From Gammaproteobacteria bacterium (GTDB lineage: Bacteria > Pseudomonadota > Gammaproteobacteria > SZUA-152), in the NCBI GenBank assembly GCA_021647505.1, contig JAKIUN010000001.1, positions 17,828 to 81,827 of the forward strand: DNA of 64,000 bases, in the 5' to 3' direction. This document shows, piece after piece, positions 18,644-60,859 of this stretch (positions are counted from its first letter, which is position 1; each line of letters begins with the position of its first letter). The position numbers and the translations under genes were made by a program. The notes below the pieces were generated by a model. That model saw only the letters and a program-made list of their open reading frames with translations. It was not told the DNA's origin and made no database searches.

Positions 18644-19788
18644 TTATTGTCCATCAATAAACCACCCCGCAGCTTGCTGCGTAGGCTTTTTGTTCAAACG
18701 CCTAAGCGTTTGAACTGGTAGTACAATACCCCGCTTTCGCGTAGCGAAATAGCTTGCTGCGGGGTGGTTTATTGGCAATATTTGGTAGTTCCATTCGCCA
18801 TGAAACACATTACGTTTGATTTGCACTTCGGCAAGTAAATCGTCACTAATTTTTTTAGACTTTTCATATTCGCTTTTGTCCAACCAAGCGTGAACTTCCA
18901 AACCTTCTTTAGTTTTTGTTGAACCAATAAGGTTAACGACAATCTCGTGAGTTTCCAATGGAACGCCCTGCCAGTTACGCGTGATATGGCAAAATAAGCG
19001 GTGCTCTATTTTATTCCACTTGCTGGTTCCTGGTGGGTAGTGACATAACTCTATCTTTAAACCTGTTTTGTTGGAAAACAGTTGTAGCGCCCACCGCCAA
19101 AGTCGAGTTCGTGGACTATTGCTACCCCCGCAGTCTGCCGTTATCAATAGTCGTTTGGCCGCAGGGTATCGCTTCTTACCCATCTTTACCCACCACCGTT
19201 CAATTGCGGCTACTGCAAATTCTGCCGTGTCATGACTAACGCAACCGATACGCCTGCTTCATTTAAAGCCATATCGTAAACCCCGTAGGGAACGGCTTTG
19301 CCGAGTGCTTTATCTGGAAAATCATGGGTGCTAACTTTCCTGGGCTTGCCTTTTGGTTGGTAAGTTTTCCCTGCATTTTTCATATTGCCTAAGGGCTCTT
19401 TCTTTTTTGTATCGATAGAGACTGCGGGTTGCTGTGCTCGCAAAATGGCTTTAACTCGTTTGTTGATGTGTTCGAATTGTGCGTTACGATCAGGGTGTTG
19501 CTTCCCTTCGATTGTTTTTCGATTAGCTTGAAGACTATAGCCTTGCGAACGAAGCAATTGCCCGATCTTCGTACTGCTAACAAAGTACCCTTGCCGTTTC
19601 AATTCTCGCGAGGGTGTATGCGTGCTTTTACCGCACCAATCCAACACTGAATTCGGTAACTTATTGTTTTGCAGGCCCTTAGTCCGCGAAACAGCAAAAG
19701 AAAAGGCCGAAGTCGTTAATGAGCTACAGGGAGTACGAAAATCATTGTTACCCGGATATCGAGTCAAAATGCTTGACGGTAACTGCAT
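18644..19788 (-). pseudogene. ISAzo13-family (DDE_Tnp_ISAZ013) transposase, degraded: N-terminally truncated, internal frameshift/deletion between 19183 and 19210
   Basis: Two adjacent minus-strand ORFs in different frames. 19210..19788 carries ..GYSLQANRKTIEGKQHPDRNAQFEHIN..KVSTHDFPD..PYGVYD. 18644..19183 carries LLITADCGGSNS..CHYPPGTSKWNKIEHRLFCHITRNW..FHGEWNY, the hallmark C-terminal block. The 3' end runs through palindromes (gttcaaacgc ctaa gcgtttgaac; caataaaccaccccgcagc inverted repeat 18655/18757). Confidence 0.75.
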
Positions 19789-20749
19789 TGAAGCATCAGA
19801 ACACCGGCTGGATGTGTTAAGGGAGACCAGAGCGGGTGCGCTTCCCGGAAAGTCCCTTGTTGTTTATGACCCCGCGTTGGAAATGGCTATTGATGTTTTT
19901 CCTTGTGAGGATGGCCATGCGCAGGAACGTTCTCTGCTTGGGCAATTATTACCCACGATTGAACCCTCTGATGTGTGGATCATGGATCGAAATTTTTGTG
20001 TTCGCGCGTTTCTTCTGACCATTGATGACAACGATAGTTATTTCATCTGTAGAGAGCATAAAGGGCTTAAGTGGGAGGCATCTGGTCGAGAAATAAAAGT
20101 GGGGAAAACAGGCACTGGAACGCTATATGAGCACTGGGTCAGTATCATTGATGATTTTGGTAAGAGCAGACAATACCGCAGGATTCGACTGTGCCTGAAC
20201 TCAGAAACGCGTGACAGTGAAAAGGAAATTGTCATTCTGACCAATCTGACGAAAACCACGGCCAACGCCAAGCTTATCGCCGAGCTGTATCGCAAGCGAT
20301 GGCGCATAGAAACGCTGTTTCAAGAGCTGGAAGCACATTTACATTCAGAAGTGAATACATTGGGCTATCCGAAAGCAGCCCTATTTGGGTTTTGTGTTGC
20401 GCTGGTTGCTTACAATGTTCTTGCCGTTGTAAAAGCCACTCTACGAGTTCAACATGGGGAAGAGAAAATAGAAAAGGAAGTATCTGGATATTATTTGGCG
20501 GGAAACATTGCCCGCACTTATGATGGAATGATGGTTGCGTTACCGGATAAAGAGTGGATTATCTTTCAAGCGATGCCTCTATTTAGACTGGCTGAGGTTT
20601 TGCTTCAGCTTGGGTCAAATGTGACGTTGTCAAAATTCATGAAGTCGAGGCGAGGCCCAAAGAAACCTCTTGTCAAGCGCAATAAATATTCGAAGCATCC
20701 ACATGTTTCTACGGCAAAGTTGCTACGTGGGGAAAAACCAAATGAATAG
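19622..20749 (+). mobile_element. IS4-superfamily (DDE_Tnp_1, IS701/ISAs1-like) transposase gene, apparently inserted into and truncating the ISAzo13-like element
   Basis: 375 aa; DDE candidates WIMDRNF, ...LTNL, and YRKRWRIETLFQELE (Y-x2-R-x3-E signature). Its 5' end overlaps the antisense N-terminal non-homologous extension of the ISAzo13 ORF. Element ends not resolved. Confidence 0.65.
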
Positions 20750-35244: not shown

Positions 35245-36414
35245 TCAGGCGAGGAAGCGGCGAATCAGGGCGGACAGGGTGTCCACCAGCAGCGTGGCTT
35301 CGTCGTCGCTCAGGATCAACGGCGGCAGCAGCCGCACCACCTGGCTGGCGATCACGTTGATCAACAGGCCTTCGTTCAGCGCCTGTTGCACCAGTTCGGC
35401 ACAGGGCCGATCCAGCTCGATGGCCAGCAGCAGGCCCTGGCCACGGATTTCGCGGATGCCTGCGACGCCGTCAAGGGCGGCGCGTAAGTCATCCAGCAGT
35501 TGCTCACCCAGGGCCTTGGCGCGCGCGGCAAGCTTATGTTCGTCCATGGTGTCGATGACTGCCAGCGCGGCGGCGCATACCAGTGGATTACCGCCGAAGG
35601 TGGAGCCGTGGTTGCCGGGCTGGAACAGTTCGGCGGCCTTGCCCTGTGCCAGGCAGGCGCCGATGGGTACGCCGTTGCCCAGCGCCTTGGCGCAGGTGAG
35701 CACATCGGGCCGCGCGCCGCTGTGCTGCCAGGCGAACCATTCACCGCTGCGGCACAGGCCGGTCTGGATCTCGTCCAGCATCATCAGCCAGCCGTTGTCG
35801 TCGCATAGCCGGCGGATGCCGGGCAGATAGTCGCCGCTGGGGATGCGAATGCCGTTTTCACCTTGTACCGGTTCCACCAGTACGGCGACGATGTCCTTAT
35901 TTTTGCTGAGTGCAGCGATGGCCTCAAGGTCGCCGTAGGGCACACGCAGAAAGCCGCTTACCAGCGGCTCGAAACCGGCCTGCACCTTGCGGTTGCCGGT
36001 AGCGCTCAGGGTGGCCAGGGTGCGGCCGTGGAAGCTGCCCTCCATGACCACGATAGCGGGGCGTTCGATGCCAAGGCCATGGCCGTGCAGGCGCGCCAGC
36101 TTGATAGCGGCCTCGTTGGCCTCAGCGCCGGAGTTGCCGAAGAACACTCGATCCATGCCGGCCACGGCGGTGAGCCGGTCGCCCAGGGCCTGCTGGCGCT
36201 GGATACCGTACAGATTGGAGGTGTGCACCAGTTGGCCGGCCTGTTCGCAGAGGGCGTGGGTGACGGCCGGGTGGGCATGGCCCAGACTACAGACGGCGAT
36301 ACCGCTGATGGCATCCAGGTAGCGTTTGCCATCCGTGTCCCATAACCAGGCGCCGTCGCCTTTCTCGAAGCTGATAGGGAGCCGTGCGTAGGTGGTCATC
36401 AATGTGTGAGTCAT
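35245..36414 (-). CDS. argD: Acetylornithine aminotransferase
   Basis: Start MTHTLMTTYARLPISFEKGDGAWLWD at ATG 36414; class-III PLP aminotransferase motifs. Confidence 0.85.
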   Translation of the reverse strand: MTHTLMTTYARLPISFEKGDGAWLWDTDGKRYLDAISGIAVCSLGHAHPAVTHALCEQAGQLVHTSNLYGIQRQQALGDRLTAVAGMDRVFFGNSGAEANEAAIKLARLHGHGLGIERPAIVVMEGSFHGRTLATLSATGNRKVQAGFEPLVSGFLRVPYGDLEAIAALSKNKDIVAVLVEPVQGENGIRIPSGDYLPGIRRLCDDNGWLMMLDEIQTGLCRSGEWFAWQHSGARPDVLTCAKALGNGVPIGACLAQGKAAELFQPGNHGSTFGGNPLVCAAALAVIDTMDEHKLAARAKALGEQLLDDLRAALDGVAGIREIRGQGLLLAIELDRPCAELVQQALNEGLLINVIASQVVRLLPPLILSDDEATLLVDTLSALIRRFLA

Positions 36415-36689
36415 GCTTTGATTTATCGTTGTCGACAGACAGGTTGTTAAAAAAGCCAAAAAACAAAAAGAAAAAGGCAGTCCCGATAGAGACTGCCGCC
36501 TTGTAGATCGGCTGATTCTATCGACTTATTAATTCCGAGGCAATAGCGGGCCTTTAGGTACTTTTTGAAGGATTATAGGTGTTGCGGGGTGCTTTCGGCG
36601 TCGCTGGGGTTGTCGTTGCCGAGTAGAATTTTGACCAGGTTTCAGCGCGATCGCCCGTGAGTTGATGCAAATGCAACCCAGGCAGATCC

Positions 36690-36790
36690 ATAATAATAGG
36701 GACAGAGAGAGAGGGGCACCAGCTACCCTGGGTACTTCCGTTATTCCAGCACCTACTCAACGGCCTTCCCCTTCTGTCCCCAATTATTCG
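36690..36790 (+). repeat. Repeat family B, copy 1 (shortened)
   Basis: taatagggacagagagagaggggcaccagctaccctgggtacttccgttattccagcacctactcaacggccttccccttctgtcc aligns with copies at 40176-40326 and 40896-41056. Confidence 0.8.
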
Positions 36791-36794
36791 CAAA

Positions 36795-37118
36795 TCAGCC
36801 GCGCCGCTTTTTGGTGTCGACTGAATTTGCCTTGTTAGCTGATTTATCTACAAGCTGACCATCTATGAATTTATGCAGAATGCTGGAAACAAGTGTTTGA
36901 TACGGCATACCTTCCATTAAGGCCTTTGCTTGCAGTGATCGAAGATCACGAGAAGACAAACGAATATTAATACGCGCATCTTTTTTGAATGTTGCCTTAG
37001 CAGCTTCCATATGCTGTTTAATCTGTCGTTTTGAATTTTTAGACTTCTTCATTTTTCCCGCTTCAAAAGCCTCTAGAATTTCTTCTTCTTCAGTGTCTAA
37101 TTTACTCATTTGCATCAC
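36795..37118 (-). CDS. brnA: BrnA-family antitoxin (ribbon-helix-helix)
   Basis: 107 aa; ..ARINIRLSSRDLRSLQAKALMEGMPYQTLVSSILHKFIDG.. matches the recalled BrnA C-terminal block; overlaps brnT by 17 nt, downstream of toxin as in brnTA operons. Confidence 0.75.
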   Translation of the reverse strand: MMQMSKLDTEEEEILEAFEAGKMKKSKNSKRQIKQHMEAAKATFKKDARINIRLSSRDLRSLQAKALMEGMPYQTLVSSILHKFIDGQLVDKSANKANSVDTKKRRG

Positions 37119-37383
37119 CTATGTACTGCTTAGTTGCTTTGCGACTTGGGATAATTGTTTTGAGAAATATTTCATCCTTTTCTTCAATATAGGGAACTAA
37201 ATATGCGTAATCTTCTATCACTACAACTGATATCTTTTGATTTGGGTAAAGCACCTTATTCGGGTGATCGTAGATATCAACTTCATTACCTAGTTGTATA
37301 TTAAGGACTATTTTTTCAAATGAGACATTCCTTTCTCTCTTGAGTGTTTCATTTTTCTCGGGGTTCCAAGCATATATTTTCAT
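37102..37383 (-). CDS. brnT: BrnT-family (DUF497) ribonuclease toxin
   Basis: 93 aa; W-NPEKNETLKRERNVSFEKI.. and ..IIPSRKATKQ recalled BrnT hallmarks. Confidence 0.75.
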   Translation of the reverse strand: MKIYAWNPEKNETLKRERNVSFEKIVLNIQLGNEVDIYDHPNKVLYPNQKISVVVIEDYAYLVPYIEEKDEIFLKTIIPSRKATKQYIGDANE

Positions 37384-37448
37384 TTACAGACCATAGCTTA
37401 AAGTGTGCATTTTGTCATCAAAAAGCTAACATATCACTCAAGTTTTGG

Positions 37449-37600
37449 AGGGACAATAGGGGGTAGGCCGGAATGGCACTTCCTTAAGGGCGTATTTCCA
37501 ATAAAAACAATGCCCTATGCCTGTCTCTACGTTAATGCTGATGGTTAGGGAAAGGCCCTTTCAACTGTATGTATAGCACTTTCAAGGTAACTACTCAGCC
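37449..37600 (+). repeat. Repeat family A, copy 1 (left TIR present, right end missing)
   Basis: gggacaataggg + ggtaggccggaatggcacttccttaagg...ttcaactgtatgtatagcactttcaagg; ~80% identical to 39943-40075. Confidence 0.8.
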
Positions 37601-37663
37601 CTCAGCCCCAAATTCAGATAAGCCATTGAATAACCGTCCGATTTTGGTATAAGCTTTGTTGCC

Positions 37664-37933
37664 ATGCAAACACCTCTCGACAAAAAAGCCCTCAGCGTAT
37701 TAGAAAAAAATGACTTGATTGCACTGCTGATGCAGCAAAACGAAATCCTCATGGTGCAGTGCGCTCGTATCGCTGGTCTGGAAAAGGAGATCGAGGAATT
37801 AAAGGGCAAACTGGCCAAGAACAGCCGTAATAGCAGTAAGCCGCCCTCCAGTGACGGTTATGACAAACCCAAGCCAAAAAGCCAGCGCAAGATCAGGGGG
37901 CTTGCGACCAGAACGGCGGTGGCCGGTGAATGA
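37664..37933 (+). pseudogene. IS66-family transposase (TnpC) N-terminal fragment
   Basis: 89 aa; coiled-coil then NSRNSSKPPSSDGYDKPKPKS block recalled from IS66 TnpC; terminates prematurely; no tnpA/tnpB nearby. Confidence 0.7.
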
Positions 37934-38351
37934 CTTTCCGGTCAGAAGCCGGGAGAGAAGGTGCCCTGTGTAGAAAGTCCAACCGCAAAAAAGGGCTGCA
38001 CGGGCGTCCACAGAAATGACAGCGGATACCTTCAGCCTCAGTGGTAGCAACGGATGCCGGGGCTTCTGACCGAGGGGGTAGTGGATCATTGAGGGGTGAT
38101 TCAGGAGAACCCTGATGCGTCACTTTCTTGCGGCGTGATCGGTAATGGTGTTGACGCTCAGCATGCTTGAAACGGCCGTTGCGAGTGTTCTGATAGCGTC
38201 TTCCGGCTGCATTTAGTGATGCTTTACGGGCTAAGTCTGCACAGGATTTACCGCAGTAGATATTGCCCCGGTCGCAGTGGCCGCAGATGATGACTTGGCA
38301 GTGACAACGGGCACAGTTGTAGAGACGGGCAGTGTTCTCCATCGGTGGCAA
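37893..38351 (-). CDS. Hypothetical Cys/His-rich zinc-ribbon-like protein (possibly IS-associated); coding status uncertain
   Basis: 152 aa; NCARCHCQVIICGHCDRGNIYCGKSC then basic R/K-rich stretch; overlaps 3' end of IS66 fragment on the opposite strand. Confidence 0.3.
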   Translation of the reverse strand: MPPMENTARLYNCARCHCQVIICGHCDRGNIYCGKSCADLARKASLNAAGRRYQNTRNGRFKHAERQHHYRSRRKKVTHQGSPESPLNDPLPPRSEAPASVATTEAEGIRCHFCGRPCSPFLRLDFLHRAPSLPASDRKVIHRPPPFWSQAP

Positions 38352-38779
38352 CTGCCGATGAGAACTGGCATGGATGGAAAATGGGGGTCATACTATCCAT
38401 GCTCGTGCTTTTGCACGGTCTTGGGGTGTGGTACCGGGGGACTGTTGAGGTCAAGATCCGGTGCCACACCTGTCTCAACGGCTCTCTCCATTTTCCCGAT
38501 TTCTTTACTTGATGTCACTCGTTGTAGCTGGCTGTTTCTTCTGACTTGCTATCCGCAGCTCTTTTGTCCGGTTACCGCTGTTCGCCAACTATGCTCGGGT
38601 TTTGACCGCCATCTACACCTGCGCTTTTGTTCAATCAGAACGAACAAATACAGGCTAAATATGAGCGCCATACCAGGATGTTATTTCGTGCACGTTCCTA
38701 AGAAAGTGATTCATAGGGTAAGTGCTTGGTCATCAGAAAATAATCTTGTTCTTGGGCAAGTAATGGAGAGCCCTATTCG

Positions 38780-39595
38780 TTAGGCCATTAGGCCTTTTTC
38801 TTCCATGAAATCATCAGGTACATCTGATGTTTTCCATCCTGTTATCGCGAAGTAGTACAGTGGCTCGCCTTCAATTGATAGTCTATGTCGGTAGCGTTCG
38901 ATGTAGTAAATATCAAGATATTTAGAGAAAATTAATTCCCTGATCATTTTTGAAAACCCTGAGTCATCGCTTCTATCAAAGAAGGTATCCTTAATATTAA
39001 AGGCCACCCACGCTTCGCTCTTGATTATATTAAAGGCCTCTAAAAATGCCTTCGTCGGAATATCGCCGAAACCTAGTGCGGCAACCGTTACCATGCAATC
39101 ACATTGCCATGCTGCTATTTCTTCCTTTTTATCCTTGTCTAGGATGGTGAAATCTTCAACATAGTATGCATCATAGACTCCTGGCCTATCGCGAATTGCT
39201 GCATCATAAGCTTCGGGTATTATGTCTACACCTATTAAACGAGAAACTCCATGCTTTTTTAGCTCTTCTCCCATCATGCCATTGCCTGCACCTAAATCTA
39301 ATATACGAAGCTCAGTAAAGTTATTTTGATACTGTTTTACCGCTGATTCGAGAATTGATGCTACTTTACCTGGAGATGTACATTTAAGGCGATCATAAAA
39401 TATTTGTTCATACAGACCTGGTACTTGGTAAATTTCATCGTAGTCGTGGAACCTTATTTTTCTCTTACCACCTGAACCTTGAAGGTAGAAATAGGCTTCG
39501 TCTTGATTGATGCTGGTTAATTCATCTTTCGGAAATTGTATTTGGTGTCTTATCGTCATTACTTTCCCAGTTTTGTTTGGATATATATTGGCCAT
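38780..39595 (-). CDS. Class I SAM-dependent methyltransferase
   Basis: Start MANIYPNKTGKVMTIRHQ at ATG 39595; motif I LDLGAGNGMMGEEL; low-GC. Confidence 0.7.
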   Translation of the reverse strand: MANIYPNKTGKVMTIRHQIQFPKDELTSINQDEAYFYLQGSGGKRKIRFHDYDEIYQVPGLYEQIFYDRLKCTSPGKVASILESAVKQYQNNFTELRILDLGAGNGMMGEELKKHGVSRLIGVDIIPEAYDAAIRDRPGVYDAYYVEDFTILDKDKKEEIAAWQCDCMVTVAALGFGDIPTKAFLEAFNIIKSEAWVAFNIKDTFFDRSDDSGFSKMIRELIFSKYLDIYYIERYRHRLSIEGEPLYYFAITGWKTSDVPDDFMEEKGLMA

Positions 39596-39942
39596 CACGG
39601 TAGGAATGCCGGTCACCCTTCCCCCCCTCCGCTCCCGCACGGATCCTCTTTATTGCCCAATAAGTTTACGCTAATACATTAGTTGCGACTACTTTCCTTG
39701 GATACTCAAATATTAATATTGAGAATCATTCCTGCAAAATCTTGGTGCTTTACTATAGTCTGAAGTCAATTTTATCACCTCTTTGAGCAGCAGAGGGGGT
39801 AGTTCTCGTGCAAATCGATACCACACACAGCAAATAGGGATGTGTGTTACTGTGGAGAACACACATTGGGTTTTCTTCCGTTGTTGGTTTGGTCGCCTTC
39901 CAGTTTAACCAGATAGAGTTAAAATGAGCATAAATTTTAACC

Positions 39943-40175
39943 GAGAGGGCAGGCCAGAATGGCACTTCCTCAGGGGTATATTTATAATAAGAACAATGTC
40001 TTATGCTTGAGTCTGAGTTAATGCTGCTGGCAAGGAAAAAGCCATTTCAACTGTATTTATAGCGTTTTCAAGATCAGTGATAGCAGCAGAAGATAAGAGT
40101 CTTAGCGCAAAATAAATGCAGACAGACTTGATTTATAAAGAAAATATCCTTAAGGAAGTGCCATTCGGGGCAGGC
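39943..40175. mobile_element. Repeat family A, copy 2: complete MITE-like unit with ~25-bp terminal inverted repeats (ggccagaatggcacttcctcagggg / ccccgaatggcacttccttaagg)
   Basis: Left TIR 39958-39985; right TIR inverted at 40148-40172; internal sequence ~80% identical to copy 1. Confidence 0.65.
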
Positions 40176-40326
40176 CGCGACAATAGGGTAGAGGGTAGAG
40201 TAGAGAGCAGGCGCCGGCTACCCCGGGAGTCTGTAGATGCTACTTCCGTTATTCCAGTGCCTACTCAACGGCCTTCCCCTTCTGTCCTCAGGGTCAGCTC
40301 CGCCAATTCGTTTACGAGGCTACATT
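40176..40326 (+). repeat. Repeat family B, copy 2 (full length), ending exactly at the SET-gene start codon
   Basis: cgacaatagggtagagggtagagtagagagcaggcgccggctacc...cttccgttattccagtgcctactcaacggccttccccttctgtcctcagggtcagctccgccaattcgtttacgaggctacatt|ATG. Confidence 0.85.
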
Positions 40327-40815
40327 ATGAAAGATGGGTTTGAGTTAAGGAATTCTTCTGGAAAGGGAGAAGGCATTTTCGCCACCAAATCATTTACGGT
40401 TGGTGACACAGTAATGATTGGCGTTATTAAAGAAGTGCTGAATGGGAATCATTCTCATGCTTCACAGGTGGGCGAAAATAAGTTTGTGCTTCACGATGGA
40501 TTAGTAACTAAGGTTAATCATTCCTGTGACCCAAATTGTGGTGTTAGAGAAAATGAAACTGGCGCACATAATTTTGTTGCAATAAAGGAGATTAGTGTTA
40601 ATGAAGAAATAACTTTTGATTATGCTATGCGAAACTATATTATCGACTACTTCCCGCAGAAGTGTATGTGTGGCTCTGAGGGATGTCGCGGTAGGATTAC
40701 AGGATGGAAAGATTTGCCAGATAAAAAGAAGAAAGCCTATGAAGGCTTTGAAGCTCCTTATCTGCTTGAGTTGGATGCTAAGAGTTCTTGCGCGAAAGTG
40801 GTAGGTTATACATAG
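40327..40815 (+). CDS. SET-domain protein (putative protein-lysine methyltransferase) with Cys-rich post-SET region
   Basis: Start MKDGFELRNSSGKGEGIFATKSF at ATG 40327; SET signature NHSCDPN, EITFDY, C-terminal CMCGSEGCRG. Confidence 0.75.
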   Translation: MKDGFELRNSSGKGEGIFATKSFTVGDTVMIGVIKEVLNGNHSHASQVGENKFVLHDGLVTKVNHSCDPNCGVRENETGAHNFVAIKEISVNEEITFDYAMRNYIIDYFPQKCMCGSEGCRGRITGWKDLPDKKKKAYEGFEAPYLLELDAKSSCAKVVGYT

Positions 40816-40895
40816 TGAAAAAACCTAACGAATAAAGTTTCGTGTTGAGTTAAGTTCAGAAATTTGTGGTCAGAATGGATGCTGTGAAATTAGTT

Positions 40896-41056
40896 GGGAC
40901 AATAGGGAACAGGCCACGACAATAGGCTAGAGTAGAGAGCAGGCACCGGCTACCTTAGGCGTCTGTAGATGCTACTTTCGTTATTCCAGCACCTACCTCA
41001 ACGGCCTTCCCCTTCTGTCCGCAGGGTCAGCTCCTCCAATTTGTTTGCGAGGCTAC
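40896..41056 (+). repeat. Repeat family B, copy 3 (no ORF follows; ends ...gaggctacatatagg)
   Basis: gggacaatagggaacaggccacgacaataggctagagtagagagcaggcaccggctacc...ttattccagcacctacctcaacggccttccccttctgtccgcagggtcagctcctccaatttgtttgcgaggctacat. Confidence 0.85.
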
Positions 41057-41300
41057 ATATAGGTTCACTTACTTGCCGGAAGAAAGCTCATGACCCTGTG
41101 TTACCACAGCGCCGCTTCCTCATACTACCGAGGCGTACGGACAATTCCTCGGACGGGACTTTAACCCGCTAGACTTACTGCTATTACTGCGAACGGACAG
41201 GCCACGGTTTTTAGAAAACCCAGGCTGTTAAATCGTGCTTTGTCCCCGATCGCCGGGTAGAACCATCTCCCAATATCGAGTTGTTTGATCTTTAGGCTGG

Positions 41301-41981
41301 TCATGGTGACGTTTTTAATTGCTCTTTGAGTTCGGCGACTTCCGCTTCCAGCCGACTGACCCTCTGTGCCAACTCGGACACACTGCCCCGCTCTGAAGTC
41401 GCGACGTCAATCGCAGACTGTGCTTGGCTTGCGTGTGCTTCAATGTCAATGGAACCGGAGAACATGTGCATGTACTCTGAGTCCTTGCGTCCGGGCGTGC
41501 GCGGGAGCTTCACTACCAACGGATTGCCTTCCCACTCGATCAGCCCGGCAAGGGTATCCACGACGGCAGAATTGTCGGTGAAGGCATGCAGGCGACCACT
41601 GCGCGATTTTAGCTCCCCAGGCGTTTGAGGGCCGCGCAGCAATAGCAAGCAGACAATAGCAAACTGAGATGGGTTAAACTGATATTCGCCAAAGTGTGTA
41701 CTGCAAAAGCGTTGTGTGAATTTCTCAACCCCACTCTTGAAATTCTCCTCAGCGCGTATGAGATGTTTGGCCTGCAAGTCGCGGGCGGTACGTTGGACTA
41801 TGCCTGGCTCCAGGGACATTAAAGGATCGCGGCTGGATTTCTGGTTGCAGGCGTTGGTAAGAGCATTAAGCGTCAATGGATATTGATCCGGCGTGACGAC
41901 AGATTTCTCCATCAGACAACCGATTACGCGGGCTTCGTTGGCGGAAAAATTCAACAGCACAGTTGGATCCTCATTAAACAT
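41301..41981 (-). CDS. yceH: YceH-family protein (DUF480/UPF0502)
   Basis: 226 aa; LNFSANEARVIGCLMEKSVVTPDQYPLTLNALTNACNQKSSRDPLMSL recalled as closely matching E. coli YceH. Confidence 0.8.
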   Translation of the reverse strand: MFNEDPTVLLNFSANEARVIGCLMEKSVVTPDQYPLTLNALTNACNQKSSRDPLMSLEPGIVQRTARDLQAKHLIRAEENFKSGVEKFTQRFCSTHFGEYQFNPSQFAIVCLLLLRGPQTPGELKSRSGRLHAFTDNSAVVDTLAGLIEWEGNPLVVKLPRTPGRKDSEYMHMFSGSIDIEAHASQAQSAIDVATSERGSVSELAQRVSRLEAEVAELKEQLKTSP

Positions 41982-59968: not shown

Positions 59969-60859
59969 ATGTACCTCGAACACTTCGGCTTGCGGGAAAT
60001 GCCCTTCTCGCTGACCCCGGACACGGAGTTTTTCTACCGCTACGGTGCTTGGCAGGAGGCCTTCGAGGTGCTCATGGTGGCCCTGCGTGGTGGTGAGGGT
60101 TTCATCAAGATCAGCGGCGAGGTGGGTACTGGCAAGACCCTGCTGTGCCGTAAGTCGCTGGCGAGCCTGGATGAGGACGAATTCGTTACCGCCTGGCTGC
60201 CCAATCCCTGCCTGACGCCTGCCGCTCTGCGTATGGCGTTGGCCGATGAGTTGGGTATCCGCTATCCGCGTAACCAGGGTCAGCATCGTCTGCTGACCTT
60301 GATCAACGAGACCCTTATCGAGATTAACGCCAGCGGCCGTCGCGTGGTGGTGTTGCTCGACGAGGCCCAGGCCCTGCCCGACGATACCCTCGAAGCCCTA
60401 CGTTTGCTGACCAATCTGGAAACGGAAAAACGTAAACTGCTGCAAGTGGTGCTGTTCGGCCAGCCGGAACTGGATGAGCGATTGGCTCAACCCGGTCTGC
60501 GTCAACTGCGCCAGCGTATCGGTTTTTCGCATCGCTTGCGGGCCATCGACCACAAGGGCCTGCCGGGTTACCTCAATCACCGCCTGCGGGTGGCTGGTTA
60601 TCACGGCACAGCCCTGTTCAGCGCAGAGGCGCAGGCGGCACTGTTTAAGGCCAGTCGGGGCATTCCGCGTCTGATTAACATCCTTGCCCACAAGTCACTG
60701 ATGGCCGCCTTCGGGCGTGGCCTGTCCGTGGTGAACCGGGACTGCGTGGTGTTGGCCTGTGCCGATACCGAGGGTGTCGTGACAGCCCCGCGTGGCCTGC
60801 TGGCCCGCCTGCGCTCACGCCGGGGTGCGGCGTTGGCGGCCGGGGTGGGTGCGGCATGA
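59969..60859 (+). CDS. mshM: MshM (ExeA-like AAA ATPase)
   Basis: Start MYLEHFGLREMPFSLTPDT at ATG 59969; Walker A GEVGTGKTLLC. Confidence 0.8.
   Translation: MYLEHFGLREMPFSLTPDTEFFYRYGAWQEAFEVLMVALRGGEGFIKISGEVGTGKTLLCRKSLASLDEDEFVTAWLPNPCLTPAALRMALADELGIRYPRNQGQHRLLTLINETLIEINASGRRVVVLLDEAQALPDDTLEALRLLTNLETEKRKLLQVVLFGQPELDERLAQPGLRQLRQRIGFSHRLRAIDHKGLPGYLNHRLRVAGYHGTALFSAEAQAALFKASRGIPRLINILAHKSLMAAFGRGLSVVNRDCVVLACADTEGVVTAPRGLLARLRSRRGAALAAGVGAA

Follow-up and report, generated by a model that had tools for sequence, protein, structure and literature searches.

Repeat B of a gammaproteobacterial island as the probable debris of a single, internally deleted group IIC-type intron

Three copies of repeat B in a low-GC island

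In the 64-kb window (the whole stretch of DNA analysed), a small island lies between argD, an acetylornithine-aminotransferase-type gene, and yceH/DUF480 (Table 1). It carries a SET-domain gene, a brnT/brnA-like toxin–antitoxin pair (brnTA), two copies of a repeat A and three copies of the sequence examined here, repeat B. The SET gene sits as cargo between copies B3 and B2, antisense to both, and brnTA occupies the interval between B2 (across the IS) and B1. The B copies are confined to a low-GC patch, with a GC content of 0.41–0.54 versus ~0.6–0.65 in the adjacent core genes.

A sequence-only reading had described repeat B as a conserved 150-bp module present three times, and the three copies were confirmed at the places proposed, with no others within the window. 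Self-BLASTN of the island (36460–41300) against the window aligned 40171–40325 with 40910–41058 (86% over 156 nt, E = 6.5e-47) and matched 36733–36782 to both other copies (94% over 50 nt, E ~ 1e-15). A 24-mer, CTCAACGGCCTTCCCCTTCTGTCC, is identical in all three copies, where no match is expected by chance, and GACAATAGG occurs four times (37452, 40179, 40898 and 40918) against 0.33 expected. Beyond the window, an exact scan of genome_contigs with the 24-mer gave no match, nor did the B core 21-mer in viral contigs or 40880–41300 in a distant BLASTN search of plasmids. The description of the copy ends held in part. Copy 2 does run as ...CGAGGCTACATT|ATG into the SET gene, and copy 1 is indeed shortened, with two internal deletions and a start 14 nt past the brnA stop. 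The proposed end of copy 3 at 41056 was incorrect, as homology to a larger element extends to 41194.

Repeats A1 and A2 bracket a methyltransferase gene (38780–39640) and a Cys-rich ORF in the window. The latter (37893–38351, minus strand; 152 aa, with CxxC motifs) occupies a patch of higher GC directly behind the truncated fragment of the IS66 transposase and has no Pfam match. Farther away, the low-GC patch at 18644–20749 looks like a nest of IS elements: an ISAZ013-type transposase is split into two minus-strand ORF fragments (18644–19183 and 19210–19788), and a DDE_Tnp_1 transposase ORF on the plus strand (19622–20749) overlaps the upstream ISAZ013-type fragment.

Table 1. Repeat B copies, their flanking exons and neighbouring features, in window coordinates
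Feature	Coordinates	Strand	Basis or details
B3, most complete relic, 268 nt	40927..41194	-	Rfam RF02003; BLASTN to full-length introns; identity to L008 tail
B2, 5′-truncated relic	40188..40325	-	Rfam RF02005; alignments to L007 and L003
B1, most degraded relic	36701..36782	-	Self-BLASTN; alignments; pair loss
EBS1 loop GGACAG	41015..41020 (B3), 40282-40287 (B2), 36775-36780 (B1)	-	Covariation with 5′ exon
5′ exon/homing site	41195..41247	-	Inverted repeat GGGGACAAAGCACG (41247-41234)...CGTGGCCTGTCC (41206-41195), 27-nt loop
B3 3′ exon	40896..40926	-	CCTATTGTC + GTGGCCTGTTCC + CTATTGTCCC
B2 3′ exon CCTATTGTC	40179..40187	-	Continuation at 37450-37462, separated by IS66-family/MITE insertion
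SET-domain gene, 162 aa	40327..40815	+	Pfam PF00856, E=8e-11; gene call in L001
SET RBS GAGG (40316-40319) and ATG (40327-40329)	40316..40329	+	Complement of intron positions ~137-147
Repeat A2, MITE, 220 nt	39949..40176		19-nt TIR GAATGGCACTTCCTTAAGG; 8-bp direct duplication GGCAGGCC
Repeat A1, IS66-family left end and N-terminal 89 transposase codons	37462..37933	+	Pfam DUF6444, E=3e-13
brnT/brnA-like toxin-antitoxin pair	36795..37383	-	Pfam BrnT_toxin and CopG_antitoxin, both below curated cut-off

Identity and boundaries on the minus strand

Covariance models place repeat B on the minus strand. Rfam RF02003 (group-II-D1D4-4) matches 41171–41039 with 49.5 bits and E = 6e-8, just above its gathering score of 49; the match overlaps copy 3 and extends 5′ of it in the minus sense. 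At a relaxed threshold, RF02005 (group-II-D1D4-6, model positions 111–219) matches B2 at 40325–40217 (24.3 bits, E = 5e-4). The B core 21-mer retrieved six metagenome loci, including a bona fide intron (L008) that joins a D1D4-6 match to a 472-aa RVT_1+GIIM protein and an RF00029 (D5–D6) match at 57 bits. With the L008 protein as query, 80 genomic loci were retrieved, about 40 of which match window positions 41201–40946 (73–81% identity, E down to 1e-66; for B3 against their 5′ ends, 75–81% over ~250 nt); in these, the B-like stretch always lies ~400–500 nt upstream of the RT gene. Full-length relatives span 1907–1912 nt, from GTTCGCAG to CTCTACTCTAC, and the pentanucleotide AGGAA in domain I (columns 76–80) is near-invariant, occurring in 23 of 24 sequences (L034 reads AGAAA) and in B3.

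Alignment to these introns gives the layout of B3. From its 5′ end GTTCGCAG (41194), domain I runs to ~40946 and is followed by the 3′ strand of D6, CCTGCTCTCTACTCTAG (40943–40927); the ~1.6 kb holding domains II–V and the reverse-transcriptase gene is missing. Homology to intact introns ends at ...GGGGTAGC, after which B continues (C/T)GG(C/T)GCC(T/A)GCTCTCTACTCTAC, and the B tail CCTGCTCTCTACTCTAC is identical to the last 17 nt of the L008 intron and also matches the family D6 3′ strand. The alignment break and the tail match together identify B as domain I joined directly to the terminal part of domain VI. All B copies have the junction GGGTAGC(C/T)GG(C/T)GCC(T/A)G, whose sequence would fit a deletion at a short GCAG(G) repeat with loss of the 4-nt D6 loop. 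The assignment of the 5′ part to D1 (versus D1–D3) is a provisional one, based on length, the Rfam D1–D4 models and comparison with the O. iheyensis intron. B2 covers intron positions ~137–262 and then passes over the common D1/D6 junction into the D6 tail. It contains a duplicated heptanucleotide, CTCTACC, and is 90.7% identical to L007 and 85% to L003; its 5′ end abuts the SET start codon. B1 is 5′-truncated at the EBS1 hairpin and lacks 13 nt internally, keeping the same D1/D6 junction, and is followed by CCTATTATT and ATGGATCTGCC (36681–36700), a diverged copy of the 3′ exon.

The exon-binding site fixes the 5′ boundary. The invariant 24-mer includes the hexanucleotide GGACAG, part of a 9-nt hairpin loop. 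A GGUCAG loop pairs with the 5′ exon CUGACC in at least 18 relatives, and a GGACAG loop pairs with CUGUCC in the window, L003, L006, L007 and L035. This compensatory change between loop and 5′ exon identifies the loop as EBS1, and the EBS1/IBS1 covariation places the 5′ splice site at CTGTCC|GTTCG (window 41195|41194), with IBS1 directly 5′ of the B3 intron. Within the family, the one-base switch from GGUCAG to GGACAG tracks a change of homing site. We had considered an intron 5′ end at GTGGCC (41205), with the upstream AGACCTGACC counted as intronic, and rejected it because the same covariation shows this segment to be 5′ exon. The inverted repeat of the homing site forms a hairpin; in L006 and L005, whose copies are better preserved, its z is −2.3 and −4.0, respectively.

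On the 3′ side, the introns of L035 and L007, which share the EBS1 of the window, likewise have 3′ exons starting CCTATT. The B3 3′ exon contains a local tandem duplicate of the target sequence, which on the plus strand is the doubled GGGACAATAGG; a reading of GTGGCCTGTTCC after B3 as the footprint of an IS end with a CTATTGTC duplication was rejected, since the tandem target copy explains it better. A 5′ exon copy downstream of the intron is not a family-wide feature (2 of 18). Both landmarks noted at the start of each copy belong to the opposite strand: the GGGACAATAGG motif, doubled at copy 3 as reported, is the complement of the intron 3′ exon CCTATTGTCCC rather than the start of a module, and the tagag repeats are the complement of the intron 3′ end CTCTACTCTAC.

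Repeat A accounts for a further outlying piece. The motif had been noted to precede A1 as well, which is true: the 3′ exon of B2 is split by repeat A. A2 is inserted in the second target unit of this exon and A1 is preceded by the other half, so that GGGACAATAGGG stands before A1 because repeat A inserted into the tandem second target copy. A1 and A2 share the TIR GAATGGCACTTCCTTAAGG. Direct repeats of GGCAGGCC lie at 39949–39956 and 40169–40176, and the 8-bp target duplication of repeat A reads, from the sequence, GGCCTGCC at 40169–40176 and GGCCTACC at 37462–37469. An 8-bp target duplication is a hallmark of IS66 elements. At the same site in L005 (8390–8640), a 225-nt MITE alone lies between the 8-bp duplications, a state consistent with recombination between A1 and A2.

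We assign a probability of roughly 0.9 to the reading that repeat B comprises three DNA copies, all decaying, of one group II intron of IIC type that suffered an internal deletion and reads on the minus strand. Among the options raised from the plus strand, the end of an unrecognised mobile element came closest, in that B is the remnant of a mobile group II intron, albeit one read on the wrong strand. Repeat B is ordinary mobile-element debris, previously unannotated, and not a new leader RNA or recombination site; the 150-bp module that runs into a start codon should be annotated as a group II intron fragment.

What an active element would need is gone. RF00029 (D5–D6) has no match in the window at its gathering score, nor at E ≤ 10 in 36400–41400; the window contains no D5 motif and no intact copy of the B intron, whose donor goes unseen, and the island has no RT ORF. 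D6 is reduced to its 3′ strand. The B copies thus lack the D5, the D6 with branch A and the IEP of a functional group II intron, and with domains II–V and the RT gene lost, the remnant is incapable of splicing or moving. Mobilisation of B in trans, as a non-autonomous mini-intron served by a full-length relative, would explain why both intron termini and EBS1 were kept, and an independent derivative with both ends is present in L007. We consider this extremely unlikely: catalytic domain V is absent, which in practice excludes trans-mobilisation, 7–12 of 72 D1 pairs are broken, the copies have flanking DNA in common, and the known bacterial ORF-less introns keep the whole ribozyme (PMC4424553). 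Those introns resemble B in having no IEP gene and in occurring alongside related introns (PMC4424553) but retain six ribozyme domains and are splicing-competent, whereas B lacks domains II–V.

The assignment of the intron to class IIC is well supported, short of formal proof, by the IEP homologues, the AGGAA motif and several insertion sites at hairpins. The L008 IEP consists of RVT_1 and GIIM with no HNH/endonuclease domain, the proteins of relatives measure 440–470 aa, and the closest solved homologues are the GsI-IIC RT and the E.r. IIC RT (6ar1, 2.5e-56; 7uim, 9e-55); this evidence comes from the relatives only. A strong hairpin ends at the insertion site in 7–8 of 31 sites (z −2.3 to −9.2), among them this locus as it stands in L005 and L006, and the remaining sites have no strong hairpin within 64 nt. 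With the IIC introns B.h.I1 of Bacillus halodurans and that of O. iheyensis, the family shares a small ribozyme, an En-less RT/maturase (in relatives), the AGGAA motif noted in domain I of IIC introns (PMC1702495), at several sites the insertion 3′ of inverted repeats typical of the class (PMC1702495, PMC4424553), and EBS1–IBS1 pairing directly upstream of the intron 5′ end. It differs in starting with GUUCG and not GUGYG, in an IBS1–EBS1 pairing of apparently 6 bp versus 3–4 bp, and in its targets, which are T-run-free palindromes of the GGGGTCAGG...CCTGACC^CC type and not terminators. The copies in the window lack D2–D5 and the IEP and are hence relics.

The intact ~1.91-kb family (L009–L047) is widespread in Betaproteobacteria, Gammaproteobacteria, Nitrospirales, Desulfobacterota and other MAGs. 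Its insertion site reads ...AGACCTGACC^CC, which in several members (L027, L028, L037, L042 and L047) belongs to a long, perfect palindrome, as its 3′ arm; the palindromes start with GGGGTCAGG and resemble MITE or transposon inverted repeats. In one Nitrospirales genome (OY820905.2), two 99.7%-identical intron copies (L031 and L033) each adjoin a copy of a 1.5-kb repeated element with the end GAGACCTGACCCC, which suggests that this intron uses the ends of another mobile element as homing sites. The B intron subfamily has an independent derivative at L007 1362–2306 (minus strand), ~1.2 kb from an RNase P RNA gene. It shares EBS1, has the exons CGTGGTCTGTCC|...|CCTATT, and keeps ~290 nt of the 5′ end plus the D6 3′ strand; between them, in place of the interior, stand ~630 nt that encode most of a 198-aa ORF. 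Relics with both ends and no interior thus arose at least twice, in the window island and in L007.

Structural decay and the SET start codon

The sequence-only reading had also raised an ncRNA or riboregulator, and the fold of the copies speaks against it. The D1 fold of the intact family comprises 72 predicted pairs, 18 of them with compensatory changes. Four intact members that were checked have 0–2 of the 72 pairs broken, versus 12 in B3, whose breaks include a 16-nt internal deletion. The L005 copy of B2 has 7 of 72 broken; the window B2 has 30 pairs left, 4 of them broken; and in B1, 24 of the 28 remaining pairs have no partner. Helices conserved with covariation in intact relatives are therefore broken or missing in the B copies, and a conserved RNA function is unlikely for copies that lack D5 and an IEP and whose helices are eroding. 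Present-day B probably has no function, except for an incidental Shine–Dalgarno sequence of the SET gene.

That exception concerns the abutment of B2 and the SET start codon, where the module had been proposed to supply promoter, 5′UTR and SD. The SD part stands: the GAGG that precedes the ATG by 7 nt complements intron sequence, and the 11 nt GAGGCTACATT that contain it also adjoin the ATG in L005, forming the sole constant part of the junction. The promoter part is not supported, as the plus strand of B2 has no sigma-70-like site, the nearest lying in the MITE at 39959–39988. The abutment itself varies between strains. In L005, whose flanking genes are 96–97% identical, B2 lies ~290 nt from the SET ATG; read in the minus sense from the ATG, AATGTAGCCTC is followed by ~280 nt and then by ATGTAGCCTC again. 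These ~280 nt consist of the unit's 5′ flank and intron positions 1–136 and are absent from the window and from L006. The exact contact of B2 and ATG is thus the product of a strain-variable 280-nt indel bounded by the 10-nt repeat ATGTAGCCTC.

Could B nevertheless be, or have been exapted as, a plus-strand expression module for cargo genes? The analogy is with IIC-attC introns (S.ma.I2 and relatives), in which an outward promoter, P1out, occupies the complementary positions ~76–106 of domain I (PMC3001079). SET is divergent from B2 and begins just past the 5′ side of the relic, the geometry in which Pout drives cassettes (PMC3001079), and its intron-complement SD is kept in both strains. Against this, no sigma-70-like site precedes SET within B2; the P1out-equivalent region is deleted from the window B2, and in B3 it reads TTGCCG-17-CTGTGT, with a poor −10; B3 faces yceH antisense and B1 faces nothing; and in L005 a further 280 nt separate B2 from the ATG. 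We regard such a role as unlikely. Of the three copies, only one abuts a gene.

The wider comparison with IIC-attC introns runs both ways. Copies of both lie between small cargo genes at hairpin sites, with a divergent gene just beyond the intron 5′ end (PMC3001079), and Nitrosomonas and Accumulibacter lineages are among the hosts both of these introns and of the relatives retrieved here. The B island differs in having no attC cores or integron integrase and no predicted Pout in B2, and its copies are all one dead deletion derivative, not active introns.

Spread of the unit and differences among strains

The copies share more than the intron. Because the deletion junction and flanking exon sequence are common to them, we take B to have spread as DNA and not by retrohoming. 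B3 (as seen in L006 and L002) and B2 (as seen in L005) share ~85 nt of 5′ flank, far exceeding the need of IIC targeting. In L089, a relative without the island and with a 92%-identical YceH, homology beyond yceH stops at ...CAGTCAAAAA, the exact start of this shared flank. A flank that starts at the island boundary indicates that the B unit was borne by the island and copied as DNA.

The competing account, in which the hairpin was present three times, each copy received its own full-length intron by retrohoming and the deletion then spread by gene conversion, has some attractions: a cognate IBS1 or 3′ exon occurs at each copy, IIC introns accumulate at repeated stem-loops (PMC4424553), and B2 and B3 are only ~86% identical. 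The hairpin, however, is absent as a dispersed repeat from the 64-kb window, where the pattern count is at chance level. The shared 5′ flank is longer than targeting calls for, the shared junction includes the secondary loss of the 4-nt D6 loop, and the combination with gene conversion requires more steps. We judge it very improbable. One hairpin-pattern match, at 60716, was set aside as a G+C-rich stretch otherwise dissimilar to B, and similarity to an empty hairpin site after brnA in L005 does not rise above shuffles.

The sequence-only reading had also suggested a site-specific recombination site. No attC-type cores occur in the island: RYYYAAC...GTTRRRY pairs number 0 on either strand of 36401–41400, where shuffles average 0.9. 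Within ~10 kb there is no recombinase; the gene table from 32.6 to 52.0 kb contains no integrase or recombinase, and the ORFs scanned in other low-GC patches are transposases or unrelated. One might still imagine the B unit as the junction of an integrase-less cassette array whose cargo was captured site-specifically or by an intron-mediated route. The copies stand, in a single orientation, at every boundary between small cargo segments (SET; brnTA); the ends of the unit are sharp, being shared after ...AAAAA in two contexts, and its start coincides with the island boundary; a long imperfect inverted repeat forms part of it; and strains differ in the presence of B1, which is missing from L005. 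The expected attC core pairs do not appear, however, and an integrase, found neither within ~10 kb nor among the ORFs scanned in other low-GC patches, would have to be distant (CALIN-type), which is conceivable. Moreover, the hairpin is fully explained as a IIC homing site, the conserved core is ribozyme sequence, and just two strain variants, with identical cargo, were seen. Capture of this kind is, in our estimate, very improbable. The narrower version, in which the ~385-bp unit serves as a junction module and SET and brnTA were gained or lost by recombination at the relics, appears very unlikely to us; if true, it would offer a case from nature, not involving integrons, in which group IIC introns seed a gene-cassette organisation.

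Under the preferred reading of repeat B as copied intron debris, we infer the following order of events. A ~1.9-kb intron with an RT/maturase gene would have reverse-spliced at the 3′ base of a DNA stem-loop, with EBS1 GGACAG pairing to exon CTGTCC and the 3′ exon starting CCTATTGTC. A ~1.6-kb deletion would then have fused the end of domain I to the D6 3′ strand, with loss of D2–D5 and the RT. The resulting dead unit measures ~385 bp: a hairpin-bearing 5′ flank of ~85 bp, a mini-intron of 268 bp and ~30 bp of 3′ exon. It would have been copied as DNA, so that its copies now separate the SET and brnTA cargo of the small island that follows yceH. The most likely copying mechanism is homologous recombination or integration of the Campbell type, with B as portable homology; the relics serve as scattered homology around these small cargo genes. 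Repeat A, an IS66-family element or MITE, would subsequently have entered the 3′ exon with an 8-bp duplication, and later deletions may have trimmed the copies, one of them bringing B2 against the SET ATG.

Inactive intron debris of this sort has a counterpart in the RmInt1-related remnant FRE652 of Sinorhizobium, an inactive fragment that survives between genes and is involved in rearrangements and in variation among strains (PMC4181065). Decay of the RmInt1 type is described as proceeding by loss of the 3′ terminus, whereas B keeps both termini, has lost its interior and is triplicated within 4.6 kb.

Further differences among strains cluster on the 3′ side of yceH. At window position 41255/41256, 53 nt (TATTTGATTCAATGAATGAC...CCCGTAAT) are missing that are present downstream of yceH in L002 (1055–1107) and L006; L089 shares the first ~42 of them and diverges after ...CAGTCAAAAA, and the deletion in the window removes the junction between the chromosome and the first B unit. 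In L005 (7280–7345), 276 nt have been deleted, which joins yceH at its last sense codon to the EBS1 hairpin of B3 and extends the YceH frame by about ten intron-derived codons. In another relative, L091 (6660–9400), with an 84%-identical YceH, the region beyond yceH likewise contains foreign genes, namely a MazE antitoxin and a DDE transposase of the IS66 family, together with a GAAAGACCCGACCCC motif that is unoccupied. The DNA 3′ of yceH may be a hot spot that takes up insertions repeatedly.
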